From Octopus vulgaris (Eukaryota), in contig OX597824.1 in assembly GCA_951406725.2 (NCBI GenBank), positions 97,898,001 through 97,962,000 on the forward strand: 64,000 bases of DNA, given 5' to 3'. Within the stretch, counting starts at the first letter, position 1. Each line of letters opens with the position of its first letter. A program made the translations under genes and the position numbers. This document shows, in pieces, positions 6,017-64,000 of the stretch. Under the pieces are notes generated by a model. That model was given only the letters and a program-made list of their open reading frames with translations. It was not told the DNA's origin and made no database searches.

Positions 6017-6740
6017 CATCATCTGGGCCGGATGGTCTCCCAGCTATACTGCTACAAACGTGCGAAATCTGTCTCGCGAAACCTTTAAAGATACTATTTC
6101 AAAAGTCGCTGGATATCGGCGAATTCCCAGAGCTATGTAAAGACATAATGGAAAGGTAGCAGGGCTGAAGCTAGAAATTACAGACCTGATTCTCTCACTT
6201 CTGACACATCTAAAATTATCAAACGCATTGTGCAAAACAGAATTATTACACACCTTGTAGAAAACAATCTCGTAGATGGCATACAGCATGGTTTGGGGAC
6301 TGGACGAAGTTGCCTTTCACAACTATTACAGCACCATAACATGATTCTTAATCTCTTGAGAGGAAACAACATTGACTGTATATACCTTGATTTTGTTAAG
6401 GTGTTCGATAAGATTCTTCATGGAATCATCTGTCATAAGTCAAAGAATCTTGGTATCTCAGGAAAACTCAGAGAATGGCTCTTTAACTTCCTACATGGTA
6501 GGAGCCAATCTGTTGCCGGAAATGGCTTTCGCTCTGTATGGTCACCTGTAATAAGTGGTATCCCCCAGGGAATGGTTCTAAGACTATTATTATTATTTAT
6601 CAACAACTTATTACCAATGCACTCATCCGAAATAACAGGTTACGCCGATGATGCAAAACTATCCATGGCTGTCCAAATTCCAGAAGATACTCACCGTCTG
6701 GCATAGAACAATAAGCATTAATAACGGAATGCATTTCTTG
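6017..6740 (+). mobile_element. CR1/L2-group LINE reverse transcriptase fragment (degenerate)
   Basis: SGPDGLPAILL..KPLKILFQKSL, QHGLGTGRSCLSQL, IYLDFVKVFDKILH, LGISGKLREWLFNFL.GRSQ, SGIPQG, YADD (ORF 6230..6706). Confidence 0.85.
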
Positions 6741-21240: not shown

Positions 21241-21339
21241 TTTAATGTAACATAGAGAACTTGTGTTTATATATATATACCCTCATGCTTTTAAATAATT
21301 TAAATCTCTGACTCTCAGTGATTGTGCATGAATGTAGAT

Positions 21340-22666
21340 ATGTGTGTATGTACGTATGTATGTACGTACGTATGTATGTACGTATGTATGTGTATGTATG
21401 TATGTATGTATGTATGTATGTATGTGTGTATGTATGTATGTATGTATGTGTGTATGTATGTATTATGTATGCATGTGTGTGTATGTATGTATGTATGTAT
21501 GTATGTATGTATGTATGTATGTATGTATGTATGTATGTATTGTATGTATGTATGTATGTATGTATGTATTTATGTATGTATGTATGTATGTATGTATGTA
21601 TGTATGTATGTATGTATGTATGTATGTATGTATGTATGTATGTATGTATGTATGTATTGTATGTATGTATGTATGTATGTATTTATGTATGTATGTATGT
21701 ATGTATGTATGTATGTATGTATGTATGTATGTATGTATGTATGTATGTATGTATGTATGTATGTATGTATGTATGTATGTATGTATTGTATGTATGTATG
21801 TATGTATGTATGTATGTATGTATGTATGTATGTATGTATGTATGTATGTATGTATGTATGTATGTATGTATGTATTTATGTATGTATGTATGTATGTATG
21901 TATGTATGTATGTATGTATGTATGTATGTATGTATGTATGTATGTATGTATGTATGTATGTATGTATGTATTTATGTATGTATGTATGTATGTATGTATG
22001 TATGTATGTATGTATGTATGTATGTATGTATGTATGTATGTATGTATGTATGTATGTATGTATGTATGTATGTATGTATGTATGTATGTATGTATGTATT
22101 GTATGTATGTATGTATGTATGTATTTATGTATGTATGTATGTATGTATGTATGTATGTATGTATGTATGTATGTATGTATGTATGTATGTATGTATGTAT
22201 GTATGTATGTATGTATGTATGTATGTATGTATGTATGTATGTATGTATGTATGTATGTATGTATGTATGTATTGTATGTATGTATGTATGTATTTATGTA
22301 TGTATGTATGTATGTATGTATGTATGTATGTATGTATGTATGTATGTATGTATGTATGCATGTATGTATGTATGTATGTATGTATTTATGTATGTATGTA
22401 TGTATGTATGTATGTATGTATGTATGTATGTATGTATTTATGTATGTATGTATGTATGTATGTATGTATGTATGTATGTATTTATGTATGTATTTATGTA
22501 TGTATGTATGTATGTATGTATGTATTTATGTATGTATGTATGTATGTATGTATGTATGTATGTATGTATTTATGTATGTATGTATGTATGTATGTATGTA
22601 TGTATGTATGTATGTATGTATGTATGTATGTATGTATTTATGTATGTATTTATGTATGTATGTATG

Positions 22667-22700
<34 letters not shown>
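21340..22700. repeat. ~1.35-kb (TATG)n microsatellite with recurring TATTG and TATTT variants
   Basis: Direct inspection. Confidence 0.98.
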
Positions 22701-23871
22701 GATATGTATATATGTAAGTACGTATGTATGTATGTGTGTATGAATGTATGTATGTATGTATGTGTCTATGTACGTGTATATGTGTATGTTTATGTGTGTA
22801 TGCGCATGTGTGTTTACCTGTATATGTGTGTGTGGGGGGGGTATGCGTTGTGTTTGTTTTTAATATAAATCGATGCCAGCATAAAAATAGCGAAAGTGAT
22901 GCGACGGATGAACAAGGTCCACAACACAGCTCCGCCACACGCGGCACGACTCAAACCACCACCACCACCTCAACACGGGACCACCACCACCACAACACGG
23001 GACCACCATCATCACCACCAGCACGCCAGCGTATGACATCACCGCACTAAGACAATACCACCATCCGTATACATCACCGCCCCATCAGCAGTATATATAC
23101 ACCCCTACACCCATGCCTTACAAACACCGACCCACCCACCCTGTTCACCTCCTCGCAACGAACCCCTGACAAACGACAGGTGAGAAATCAGGTCTCACTT
23201 TTACAACCGCCACCCACCATTATGCTCACCCACCCGTATCATCTTACCAGCACCACCGCCATCGCTACCACCACCATCACCTCACCAACACTTCTCCCTT
23301 CTATTCGTGCTCTTACTCCTCCAGTCTTCCTCTTCTTAGATACAAAGAGACAAAGAGAAAAGGAAGAGAGAGAGAGGCGGAGTAAAAGGAGCAGGTGGAG
23401 GAGATTGGGGTGGGAATGGGCGAAGTTAAGCGAAATATATTACGGGTAGTTTTGGTGAACATTGATAGATTGACGGATGGATTTGTGGGTAGGGGATAGG
23501 CGAAGAGGTGGGTAGAAGAAAGGATAATCGATAGGTGAGTGGACGGGTGGAATGACGAGTGAATAAATGGGGGAGGGCAAAGGTAGATGGATGTTTAGAT
23601 GGTTGGATGGAGAGATGAATCGATAAGTGAGTGGATGAATGGACGGGTGGGTGGGTGTTTGGATATGTAGTTTCGATGGGTGGATTTGGAAAGACGAGTG
23701 TATATGGGTAGAAGGATGTGTAAAAAGATAAATATAGGGAAAGGTGGATTGATGGATGTATAGAAATGGGGGGGGGGTGAGTGGGTGAATGGAAGAATGG
23801 GTGGGTTGCTAGATGGGTGGATTGTTGCAAAGATGGGATGAGGGGTAGATGGATGAATGCAAGGGTTCGAG

Positions 23872-37429: not shown

Positions 37430-38622
<1,193 letters not shown>

Positions 38623-38645
38623 ATATATATATATATATATATATA

Positions 38646-38933
38646 TCAAAAGAAAAACAGGATGCAAAGGATTTAGCGGTACATATGTTTCTGGCTTTTA
38701 TTAAACAGTTTATATCAATGCATAATTGATGTAATATGTATGTCAATAGCCTTCTTCAGCCGCGTACTATTACCACTCCAAGGACATGTATTACATTATA
38801 AGTTTGGACAGTAATGTAATACATGTCCTTGGAGTGGTAATTGTACGCGGCTGAAGAAGGCTATTGACATACATATTACATCAATTATGCATTGATATAA
38901 ACTGTCTAATAAAAGCCAGAAACATATGTACCG

Positions 38934-38936
<3 letters not shown>
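38646..38936. mobile_element. Fold-back element with hammerhead-like motif in both arms, in (TA)n
   Basis: Arms 38674-38798 and 38812-38936 (~125 bp, 13-nt loop). Right arm reads GCGG-CTGAAGA-AGGCT...AGCCA-GAAA-CATAT-GTA-CCGC (38847-38934); helix III palindrome ACATATGT. Confidence 0.8.
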
Positions 38937-38992
<56 letters not shown>

Positions 38993-39018
38993 AAAAGCAA
39001 CAAGAATGGATCAATATA

Positions 39019-39103
39019 TCGGTACAATTGTTTCGTACGAAGACATCTTTAATAAGGCTACAAAAATTGCAGTAAATATAGGTGGCTCGTACTCATCAGC
39101 CGA
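39019..39103 (-). ncRNA. Inverted copy of the same hammerhead ribozyme
   Basis: Near-perfect reverse complement of 39323-39407, in the left arm of the fold-back. Confidence 0.85.
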
Positions 39104-39322
39104 AAAAACATCCGAGATTCCCAAACATCAAAGGGGGTAATGTTACACTCGTGAAACATCATGGAAAGTTCTATAAAAATGAGAATTTAGATAACAAATT
39201 GGTTTCTAAAAGTTCAATTAGTATTACACAGTCATATATCAGGTTTTTAAAAAAATTTTTCAAAACCTCTTAGTTTTCCAGAAAGTGAAGATGAAAGTGA
39301 AGATGAAAGTGAAGATGTTTTT

Positions 39323-39407
39323 TCGGCTGATGAGTACGAGCCACCTATATTTACTGCAATTTTTGTAACCTTATTAAAGATGTCTTCGTACGAAACAATT
39401 GTACCGA
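39323..39407 (+). ncRNA. Hammerhead ribozyme with canonical core
   Basis: TCGG-CTGATGA-GTACGA...TCGTAC-GAAA-CAATT-GTA-CCGA: helix I TCGG/CCGA, 6-bp helix II, palindromic helix III ACAATTGT, GUA cleavage triplet. Confidence 0.85.
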
Positions 39408-39525
39408 TATATTGATCCATTCTTGTTGCTTTTTTCCTATTTGTAATCAAATATAGATTTCCGGTGCATCCAAGTTAAGTACCATATTCATGTGAATTCA
39501 ATTGAACTCGCTTGAATCTTAATTG

Positions 39526-39612
<87 letters not shown>

Positions 39613-39641
39613 ATATATATGCATGTATATATATATGAATG

Positions 39642-39672
<31 letters not shown>

Positions 39673-39695
39673 ATATATATGCATGTATATATATA

Positions 39696-39801
<106 letters not shown>

Positions 39802-40056
39802 TAGATATATATAATATATATATAAATGCATATATGGGTACGGGACGTCACCAACTGTGCACGTAACATGAAATACGTAAACAAACGAAGGGAAAAACAA
39901 GTGAAATACATAAACAAGAAATAAAAATGGAAAACAGGACAAGTTGTCGGCTGTGTATCTACTCCTCATTTCGAATATGTGTGTGTGTATATATATATGT
40001 ATATGTATGTATGTATATGTATATGTATGTATGTATATGTATATGTATGTATGTAT

Positions 40057-50664: not shown

Positions 50665-50708
<44 letters not shown>

Positions 50709-50809
50709 TGAATATGGTACTTAAGTTGAAGGCACCAGAATTTAGTATGGTTTTATCCATATAAATTAAAATAAGATGATTAAAATCAAAATCCTTGTTG
50801 CTTATTTTG

Positions 50810-50847
<38 letters not shown>

Positions 50848-51072: not shown

Positions 51073-53268
51073 TCTGTTGTTACCATTCCCCCCGATCTTC
51101 CCCTCTCTGCGGCGGAACGCTCCGTCCTTAGTAGGGGTCTGCGTTTCATCCCCCTCACTCCATCCTGTAAGGAATTCCAGACGCGAGTTGATGTCCACAG
51201 CTTTGTGCGCCGCGTCCGGTTGGGTGCGCATTTCCGCGACTCACCACCCACATCCAACGAAGAAGACTGTTTCACTGATCTGGGCTGCTGACCATCCCCG
51301 TGGACGCCTGCCCCCGGCCAGTTCCTAGCAGTGGATCTTTTCGCGGGCGCTTGTCAGCGTGCATTGGAGCGGTTCAACTTCTCCAGGCGCCAACGCCGCC
51401 TCAACATCTCCCCGGCCGAGCTCTCGGCTCTTCGTTCCCTCCAACGGCGCGCTGACATTATCATCAAACCGGCTGACAAGGGTGGAGCTGTAGTGGTGTG
51501 GCGCGCGGACCTCTACAGGGCCGAGGCTCTCCGCCAACTCAATGACACCTCCTTCTACTCCCCTCTGTCCTCTAACCCCACACGTAGCTACCAACAGACG
51601 GTATCCTCTACTGTCCGCGACCTCATCTCGTCCTCCCGTCTCCCCCACACCACATCCAACCTAATTGTGCGAACCCCACGTACCCCCACCATTTACTTCC
51701 TCCCCAAAATCCACAAACCCAACAACCCTGGCCGCCCCATCGTCTCCGCCTGTAACTGCCCCACGGAGCTCATCTCTAAATACCTCGACCGTGTCCTTGC
51801 CCCCTAGTGGCGTCTCTTCCCTCCCACATCCACGATACCAACCATGCTCTCCGGCTTTTCAACTCTTTCTCCTTTCCTCCCGGCTCCTCCAAAATCCTTT
51901 TTACTATGGACATTCAGAGCCTCTATACCGTTATCCCTCACCACGAAGGACTGCAGGCACTTCAACACTTTCTTGACCTCCGCTCCAACCCTTGAACCTG
52001 ACACCTCCACACTCATTCGTCTGGCCGAACTTGTCCTTACTCTTAACTGCTTCTCGTTCACGGGCGAGTTCTACCATCAGGTCTCGGGAGTGGCCATGGG
52101 AACGCGAATGGGCCCCAACTATGCGAACCTGTTCGTTGGCTATGTTGAGGCCCAAATATTCTCTAATTTCACTGGTCCCACTCCTGAACTATATGGTCGT
52201 TACATTGACGACATTATCGGTGCCACCTCACTCTCCCGTGAACATCTAGATTCCTTCCTCTCTTTCGTTCAATCTTTCCATCCAGCCCTCCACTTCACTT
52301 CCACTATCTCCAACACCTCTGTCTCCTTCCTCGACATTTCGGTTAGCATTCTTCACTCCACTCTTACCACCTCCATTCACTACAAACACACAGACTCACA
52401 CTCATACCTCAACTTCTCTTCCTCCCACCCAGAACACACCAAGCTTTCCATCCCTTATTCCCAATTCCTCCGTCTACGTAGGCTCTGTAGTGACGACCAT
52501 GACTTTGAGACTCAGTCTCAACGTATGGCTCACCACTTCATCCTAAGTGGATACCCCCTCACCACTATCCACACCGCCCTTGCCAGAGCACGTTCCGTGG
52601 ACCGTGTATCTGCTCTCTCTCCCCGAACCCGCCCTGTAGTCTCCCGCCTCCCTTTTCCCCTCACTTACCACCCCACGACCCTACCTCTTCAACGCACCAT
52701 TCTTCGAGCTTTCCGTCATCTCCAGTCCGACCCGTCCACTTCACACCTCTTCCCTAACCGACTCCTCCCCTCTTTCAAACGAGCCCATAACCTTCGAGAC
52801 CTTTTGGTCCATAGCTCCTTCCCTGACCCTACCTCCCAACCTGGCTCGTTCCCCTGCTCCCGCCCACGTTGCCGCACTTGCCCTTACCTCTCCAACACCA
52901 CCCTCCTCACTGGCACCCATCATCGACCCTATCGCATCATCAACTCCTTCACCTGCACCTCCAGCAATATTATCTATTGCGTCTCTTGCTCTCTCTGCCA
53001 TTCCCTGTACATCGGACAAACGGGACGCCGTTTGGCTGACCGGTTCGCGGAACACCTTCGTGACATCCGCCTTGCGAACGACACACCGGTCTCACGCCAT
53101 TTCCGCTCCACCGGTCTCACGCCATTTCCGCTCCACCGGTCACTCCTTGCAACACCTGTCTGTGTTCGGTTTGTCCTTACACAGAGGCCATCCGCCGTGA
53201 ACAGGAATTAATCTTCTCTCTTCGCTCTTATACGCCATTTGGTCTCAACTCTCCCCCTCCTCATCTAA
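51073..53268 (+). pseudogene. Disrupted PLE RT/GIY-YIG ORF
   Basis: In-frame TGA at 51289-51291, frameshifts near 51805 and 51992, and a 25-bp tandem duplication (caccggtctcacgccatttccgctc) near 53084-53133 that shifts the frame in the endonuclease. Pieces appear as ORFs 51331..51807, 51807..51995 and 51844..53211. Confidence 0.9.
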
Positions 53269-53827
53269 CCCCCTCTCCCCCTCCCTCCTTCTTCCCTCTT
53301 CCCCTTCCCTCTTTCTCTCTGCTCCCTCACTCCCCATCTCTCTCTCTCCCTCTCCCTCTATCCTCCCTCCTCCTCTCCCCTCCACTTCTCCTCTCCTTCC
53401 TTCTCCCCCTTCTCTCCCCTCCTCTTCTCCTCTCCTTCCTTCTCCCTCCTCTTCTCCCCTTTCCTTCTCCCATTTATTTCTCCTCCCTCCCCCTCCCCTC
53501 TCCCCCTTACCTCCCCCTCTTCCCTCATCTCCTCTCTCTACACTACACCATACGACTTTACACATCACATCATATATACATACACACGTCCAGACCTCTC
53601 ATACGCACTAATACTCTCTCATACACACACACACACTCTTCTCATACACACACACACACTCTTATGTTGGAGCGAGGTCATTCAACCCTATTATCTCCCC
53701 AAATTTCGCTCTTGCGTCTCACGTTTGATCTTTGACTTCTGGCCGAAATCAGATCGCCATGTTGATTCGCTAGCCTCTGCACGCATATTTTTTTTCTCTC
53801 CTTCTTTCTGTGTTTTTTCTCTGTGTA

Positions 53828-53865
53828 TCTTTCTGTTGAAGAGCGTAGGCTCGAAACGTTAAAGA
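53828..53865 (+). ncRNA. Minimal type I hammerhead ribozyme variant in the PLE 3' terminal repeat
   Basis: TCTTT-CTGTTGA-A-GAGC gtag GCTC-GAAA-CGTT-AAAGA: helix I TCTTT/AAAGA, helix II GAGC/GCTC, palindromic helix III AACGTT. Core is CUGUUGA rather than CUGANGA. Confidence 0.75.
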
Positions 53866-53962
53866 CTTGTTTTATTTATATTTCATGAGCGCCATGCTAA
53901 TACAATTGTTTGTTTGTATTCCACCTGCCTTCGTCTTTTGTCTATTTTCATAAAGCTTCCCG

Positions 53963-54001
<39 letters not shown>

Positions 54002-63269: not shown

Positions 63270-63700
63270 CCCAGGCAGATAGGGAGTCTATTGATCTTGG
63301 CAGAAATGAATGGCAAAAAAAGATCTTGCCTAAAGTAAGGGATTTTGAAGTATGAAACGAGAACTATGGGAAGATAACATCTTACTAAACATGTGGCAAG
63401 AATTTCCAGAAAAAAAAAAATCTTACCACATGAGTTTTCGCATCTGAAAACTCATCCTACATGGTTTTTGTGTCATTCGTGTCATTTGCACATCATTCCA
63501 GGAGATACGGTCTCATGCCATCTTCGTTATAAGATTTACCAGTCCTGTACTGCTCTGAAAAGGCATTTAAACATCCACAAATCAGACCAGACAAACAACA
63601 TGGCGTCACTTCATGTGAGACATATATTTGCACTGCTTGTAATGCAAATTTCAAACAGTTCTTGGTACCCAAAGGCCACTTACGTGCTCACACACGGGAA
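63270..63700 (+). pseudogene. Degenerate RTE-like C-terminus followed by three C2H2 zinc-finger remnants
   Basis: RESIDLGRNEWQKKILPKVRDFE, then Y*TCGKNF..SHLKTH, SCHL(R)YKIYQSCTALKRHLNIH, and YICTACNANFKQFLVPKGHLRAH (exact C-x2-C-x12-H-x3-H). Stops and frameshifts are present. Confidence 0.6.
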
Positions 63701-64000
63701 AAGCATATCTAATGAGAAATGGTCTAGCTTTGAAAAGGAACAGATTAATTCTCTTTATGTAATGCACAAATATGTATGTTTGTATGTATTGTAAATATGT
63801 GTATATTTGGATGTACGTATATATGTGTATATATGTGCATGTACGTATATATGGATGTGGGTGTAAGATTTATGTCAGAAAGTTCTGGTTCTTAATGATA
63901 GCTTAAAGAAACTGGAAAAATTATTTTCACATCGTGGTATGCGTGTTTGCATTTATATGTGTGTATGTGTACATGTATAAGTATGTGTGTATACATGTAT

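Follow-up and report, generated by a model that had tools for sequence, protein, structure and literature searches.

Between positions 38991 and 39527 of the window, the 64,000-nucleotide stretch of Octopus vulgaris DNA analysed here, a hammerhead ribozyme motif stands on each strand, one in either arm of a single fold-back. The question raised by this locus is whether the pairing of a ribozyme with its own antisense constitutes a regulatory device or is simply what the insertion of a mobile element leaves behind. The best explanation, at a probability of about 0.82, is that the 537-base fold-back is one truncated, head-to-head insertion of a Penelope-like element (PLE), in which the ribozyme is a passenger, locked into a hairpin in read-through RNA, and whose copy holds no reverse transcriptase (RT) or GIY-YIG frame.

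Scanned on both strands for hammerhead structure, the window shows type I hammerheads at 39323-39407 on the plus strand and at 39019-39103 on the minus strand, in exact agreement with the coordinates given in an earlier note on this DNA. The core of CUGAUGA, GAAA and GUA, the 4-bp helix I and the 6-bp helix II closing a loop of about 46 nt, all described in the same note, are likewise present in both arms. In total, the real window yielded four hammerhead motifs, two of them with a helix II of at least 6 bp, whereas 60 windows simulated with an order-3 Markov model gave one loose hit overall and none with a helix II of that length. In the plus-strand motif, the 4-bp helix I is formed by TCGG (39323-39326) and CCGA (39404-39407), the CUGAUGA core occupies 39327-39333, and helix II pairs 39334-39339 with 39386-39391 through six Watson-Crick pairs and one G-U pair, enclosing a loop of 44-46 nt; GAAA (39392-39395) and the cleavage triplet GUA (39401-39403) complete the core. 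Cleavage is predicted after 39403 on the plus strand and after 39023 on the minus strand. Both motifs follow the type I order, with a CUGANGA core, GAAA, an NUH triplet and ends that lie in helix I, and all three helices can pair (helix I, 4 bp; helix II, 6-7 bp; helix III, 2 bp in a monomer or 8 bp in a dimer).

Helix III is built from an 8-nt palindrome, ACAAUUGU (39395..39402, plus strand), which equals its own reverse complement. Within one molecule this segment offers 2 bp and a 4-nt loop; between two molecules it forms 8 bp, at -6.4 kcal/mol. The earlier note had called the hammerhead canonical, a description that holds for the intact core but not for the class, given the palindromic, dimer-type helix III, the 4-bp helix I and the lack of an Rfam match. 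None of the Rfam hammerhead models matched across the window at the gathering score, and the 43 matches returned for 38600-39600 at E values of up to 10 included no hammerhead family; the miRNA-family matches over 38730-38880 all fell below the gathering score and reflect the palindrome of a neighbouring fold-back. Canonical metazoan and non-LTR retrozyme hammerheads combine a helix I of about 6 bp with a helix II of 4 bp (PMC4209133), as against 4 bp and 6-7 bp (with the 44-46-nt loop) here, and are expected in tandem units on the same strand, whereas the window has only two copies, which are inverted. The traits of metazoan PLE hammerheads are present, namely a short helix I, a long helix II and the G10.1-C11.1 pair, and ACAAUUGU supplies the palindrome characteristic of positions 15.2-16.2 and loop 3. 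Metazoan minimal hammerheads typically, though not universally, leave one base unpaired where helix II begins, between positions 9 and 10.1; that base is absent here, as it is in Penelope-13_HM, Penelope-1_NV and Hydra-2_aMil as given in the supplement of PMC8557442. On modelled structure, the hammerhead of 38991-39527 is thus of the Penelope type, in its dimer-dependent form, with self-cleavage standing as a prediction.

The layout of the unit is asymmetric. It lies between a (TA)28 microsatellite (38935..38990), the likely insertion target, and a (TA)38 microsatellite on its right (39528..39603). The left arm (38991..39112, minus strand), which would be the 3' end of a longer truncated copy, ends at the (TA)n run without a tail. 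It is followed by a spacer (39113..39313, minus strand), which would be the part of the element body lying 5' of the minus-strand hammerhead, itself cut short at its own 5' end near 39305-39313. A 12-nt unit repeated 3.1 times (39281..39317, plus strand) lies at the head-to-head junction, beyond which the right arm (39314..39439, plus strand) would be an inverted, more strongly 5'-truncated copy. Only the right arm carries a 3' extension, or tail, of 88 nt (39440..39527, plus strand). Aligned over 38993-39112 and 39314-39433, the arms are identical at 119 of 120 bases across the 201-nt spacer; they differ by one substitution and by two bases in the outer A run. The two hammerheads are directed outward, away from the centre of the fold-back.

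Based on this anatomy, a simple model would derive the whole unit from a single event. A full copy elsewhere would have provided the RT and the GIY-YIG endonuclease, which would have cut a (TA)n target and copied the 3' end of the element RNA there twice, in opposite directions. The longer copy, of about 320 bases on the minus strand, would run from 39313 to 38991, and the shorter, of about 215 bases on the plus strand, from 39314 to 39527, tail included. The hammerhead would be the family's own pLTR ribozyme, whose palindromic helix III would normally allow tandem transcripts to be cleaved in dimer form, and at 38991-39527 it would merely travel along.

Several observations favour such an insertion. 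Outward-pointing hammerheads, together with a gradient of sequence depth in three of four public sequencing runs, fit an inverted, 5'-truncated copy joined head to head, and an adjacent fold-back, unrelated in sequence, repeats the design. The (TA)28 and (TA)38 flanks agree with the (TA)n target of the Neptune, Hydra and Naiad clades; a target-site duplication is unreadable inside (TA)n. Counting against this reading are the spacer, which lacks a protein match, the 88-nt tail, the missing unpaired base in helix II and a fourth run (X17) without a gradient. With regard to the tail, a 112-base relative of this segment occurs between (TA)n runs at 50704-50815, lacks a hammerhead and stops at the match to position 39495; this stop point leaves the last 32 nt of the one-sided 88-nt tail, and published tails measure 30-40. 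Of the two ends of the 50704-50815 relative, one looks like the direct tail of 38991-39527 and the other like the outer end of its inverted arm.

Protein searches with the spacer returned no recognisable protein. A 63-codon open stretch on the plus strand (39082-39270) was considered as a gene and rejected: it belongs to no Pfam family, and its two hits among 1.84 billion proteins were both short alignments with unrelated repeat proteins. The absence of a protein match would be expected if the family were non-autonomous and gene-less, borrowing PLE enzymes, with the same anatomy and insertion route and a spacer that never leads to a frame. Non-autonomous derivatives of PLEs do exist, as described in 10.64898/2026.07.22.740005 and, for non-autonomous Chlamys, in PMC8557442. 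We nonetheless consider a gene-less family improbable, though the strongest of the alternatives. Retrozymes are by definition tandem, with their hammerheads on one strand, whereas the pair at 38991-39527 is inverted; the 200 bases upstream of the 3' hammerhead may be just untranslated; and relatives of the unit in public data behave as expected for a truncated longer element, with depth dropping toward the 5' side in three of four runs and one contig diverging at 39305.

These relatives were drawn from the 24 public runs listed, 20 of which, across 8 studies, contain part of the stretch. None of the 24 is recorded as an RNA run that contains it; two of the aligned runs are presumed to be RNA, and as contigs they are uninformative about strand, level or origin. 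Four runs (X1, X2, X6 and X17) were aligned to 38600-39600 at an identity of at least 85%, and 1160, 270, 123 and 32 contigs matched in the four runs, in identity classes from below 90% to above 99%. The wide spread of identities and the large number of contigs place both fold-backs, to judge from sequence, in abundant, diverged families. From 39110 toward 39313, summed contig depth over the spacer, which is not a measure of copy number, falls from 23070 to 3956 in X1, from 1792 to 129 in X2 and from 534 to 25 in X6; in the small run X17 it is flat, at 14 to 11. The junction between left arm and spacer is bridged by two X17 contigs (records 12 and 13) under a 31-letter rule, which three further contigs, in X2 and X6, miss by 1-4 letters. 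The junction between spacer and right arm, at 39313/39314, is bridged by none among the 32 listed of 1595 pieces, and it is an X17 contig that diverges into other sequence at 39305. The native element therefore probably has the minus strand as its sense strand, with the spacer leading into the left hammerhead, and is truncated near 39305-39313 in the present copy. In other copies, seven joints, no two at the same place, span the fold-back centres (two at 38991-39527, five at its neighbour); identified at 85% likeness, with 21-58 letters on a side, they are weak singly and may stem from other repeats. A pattern specific to this hammerhead family gave no match in metagenome contigs, none of three 12-mers from the two hammerheads was found in the supplement of PMC8557442, a weak miss given its line-broken sequences, and among the papers listed on octopus hammerhead ribozymes none describes this family by title or abstract.

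The functional alternative depends on how the RNA folds. As the earlier note had stated, a transcript of the whole unit, whichever strand is read, includes one ribozyme together with its complete antisense, and the hairpin of about 120 bp that it had envisaged is indeed predicted, as a 120-bp near-perfect duplex within a 537-nt RNA fold of -253 kcal/mol (z = -27), a value that none of 100 shuffled sequences equalled. Forcing the ribozyme fold within the full unit costs 128 kcal/mol on the plus strand and 132 kcal/mol on the minus strand, and the pairing probability of helices I-III there is 0.00. When the spacer is kept and the opposite arm removed, the cost decreases to 4.4 (minus) and 8.5 (plus) kcal/mol. 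In the isolated motif, helix II forms with a probability of 0.42 on the plus strand and 0.84 on the minus strand; for helix III the value is 0.02-0.04. It is important to note that these energies ignore the tertiary core of the hammerhead and proteins, which matters for the monomer and for small gaps, not for a difference of about 130 kcal/mol.

Since each ribozyme faces outward, transcription of the unit from either strand reaches the antisense arm before the ribozyme. In read-through RNA the 120-bp duplex would form with that arm already in place, and editing or dicing would be by-products; only an RNA started within the spacer would carry a free ribozyme, and even this one would depend on a partner in trans. 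The proposal that ribozyme and hairpin compete, as in a switch, is not supported by this comparison, since the cost of about 130 kcal/mol and the early antisense arm describe a lock. Nor is there support for the suggestion that the locus is the best candidate for activity in the window: helix III of the monomer is predicted to form with low probability and a same-sense partner should be needed, which an inverted pair does not give, and no same-strand hammerhead partner lies near 38991-39527. According to these models, read-through RNA is predicted to be a locked hairpin, and the unit is predicted not to be a strong candidate for ribozyme activity.

The duplex could still serve its host or its family in another way, as a self-silencing device maintained by selection. 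In this view the unit would be fixed, and its hairpin RNA would either yield small or edited RNAs that hold the family in check or gate the ribozyme. The near-perfect 120-bp duplex is what such a device would require, and siRNAs match inverted copies of Penelope in transgenic Drosophila melanogaster, although the same report states that they failed to silence Penelope efficiently (PMC3681739). We regard this reading as very unlikely. Besides the energy gap of 128-132 kcal/mol, which makes a lock rather than a switch, the junctions vary among copies, and the arms differ at a single one of 120 positions, showing neither compensatory changes nor an editing scar, so that their near-perfect pairing reflects the recent date of the insertion. 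A more elaborate version would have the read-through hairpin of a fixed, selected unit shut the ribozyme and feed small RNAs or ADAR editing against the abundant family, while transcripts initiated in the spacer release the minus-strand ribozyme for dimer cleavage in trans with other copies, so that the choice of start site toggles between silencer and enzyme; we give it equally little credence. An editing scar was sought in both fold-backs and rejected, with arm differences of only 1/120 at 38991-39527 and 2/122 at the neighbour, since hyper-editing of one strand would leave many arm differences where only one is present. If transcribed, the 120-bp duplex is a possible substrate of Dicer or ADAR, by analogy with Penelope in Drosophila.

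The same design recurs about 60 bases away, in a fold-back that the earlier note did not mention. This neighbour (38647..38934) carries hammerheads at 38676-38763 (minus) and 38847-38934 (plus) and is unrelated in sequence. Its arms share 120 of 122 bases; only the left one carries a tail, of about 29 nt, and (TA)n runs flank the fold-back on both sides. Its hammerheads are outward-pointing and of type I, with a CUGAAGA core and an 8-nt palindromic helix III, ACAUAUGU; the helix III palindromes of the two fold-backs differ at two central bases. That the palindrome at 38991-39527 arose by local inverted duplication or as an assembly artefact at microsatellite edges, as might be suspected from the (TA)n runs that abut both ends of the unit and from the unbridged 39313/39314 junction, is the least probable explanation of all, given that the arms differ by a substitution and in the outer A run, that the tail is one-sided, that a second family next door has the same design and that this design has been published for PLEs.

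The region from 37886 to 39835 consists of inserts chained between (TA)n runs, in which a LINE-like RT fragment (about 37890-38620, minus strand; RVT_1, E = 2.7e-10) is followed by the two fold-backs, and it looks like one microsatellite hit repeatedly. To the right of 38991-39527, about 140 bases of non-simple sequence (39836-39975) lie between microsatellites and are possibly a retroelement stump. Elsewhere in the window, inspection of the ORF list by eye indicated a LINE-like reverse transcriptase fragment at 6149-6706; a very long (ATGT)n array of about 369 copies occupies 21328-22802; and an open stretch at 63378-63794 shows, by eye, a His/Cys spacing like that of decayed zinc fingers.

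A broken PLE reading frame is present in the window at 51292-53211, where 958 of 7993 scored candidates match at E values of at most 1e-20. Among the 120 relatives listed, many have the RT domain PF00078, in some cases together with GIY-YIG PF01541, and the window's own 51292-53211 piece has no Pfam match. Viewed by eye, 51292-53967 reads as RT followed by a cysteine motif and a motif resembling GIY-YIG, close to the printed Neptune row. Downstream of this frame and on the same strand, a minimal hammerhead (53828-53865), altered at one core position, is followed by (TA)n. The combination of PLE frame, 3' hammerhead and (TA)n at 51-54 kb shows that the link between the three exists within the window. 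No DNA match was found between this PLE and the fold-back at 38991-39527, and the two are different families.

Read as a PLE insertion, 38991-39527 is one more truncated copy, ordinary in kind. More generally, head-to-head PLE units are ready-made sources of long dsRNA, which is of relevance in a cephalopod host with heavy ADAR editing. In addition, two unrelated, adjacent families that share a long loop II and an 8-nt palindromic helix III provide clean substrates for a test of dimer cleavage.

Comparison with known systems places the unit closest to insertions of EN+ PLEs, which are reported to comprise an inverted, 5'-truncated copy, a tail of 30-40 bp at one end only and a bias for (TA)n (PMC8557442), with head-to-head as the most frequent direction of the inverted copies (PMC3846280). 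The Neptune and Hydra clades, the candidate clades for this family, are both TA-biased and hammerhead-bearing, and Penelope-13_HM appears in the supplement with an inverted copy and with hammerheads on both strands (PMC8557442). The family of 38991-39527 shares with these units the head-to-head ends, a hammerhead near the 3' end and hence on both strands, the tail at one end, the (TA)n flanks and many 5'-truncated copies; it differs from them in that the present copy lacks a reading frame and in its tail of 88 nt (last step, 32 nt). PLE tails are reported to reflect two start sites of reverse transcription, and ribozyme mutants to have no effect on PLE insertion in vitro (PMC11167929).

At the level of the ribozyme, animal PLE hammerheads are described as having a short helix I, a long helix II, G10.1-C11.1 and a palindromic helix III (Cervera and de la Pena 2014, PMC4209133), and the motifs at 38991-39527 resemble them in their type I order, 4-bp helix I, 6-7-bp helix II, G10.1-C11.1 and palindromic helix III, differing in the length of loop II (44-46 nt) and in lacking the unpaired base that would separate positions 9 and 10.1. 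The Schistosoma hammerhead is reported to show no cleavage as a single motif and low cleavage as dimers (PMC4209133). Non-LTR retrozymes (PMC7229834; 10.64898/2026.07.22.740005) are similar in being gene-less repeats with a type I hammerhead and a tie to PLEs; however, they consist of tandem, same-strand units with canonical hammerheads and release circular RNA, whereas the inverted unit at 38991-39527 cannot release a monomer. Inverted Penelope copies in Drosophila (PMC3681739) are likewise inverted repeats made by insertion and able to form dsRNA; those copies are matched by siRNAs, whereas dsRNA from 38991-39527 is a prediction. Finally, "dual min-HHRs" on opposite strands, about 100-700 bp apart, were reported in 2014 (PMC4209133), and the pair described here falls within that arrangement. 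The opposite-strand layout is already known in other animals, and by analogy with these systems its sense and antisense hammerheads are explained by the mode of PLE insertion, an explanation that would need no function.
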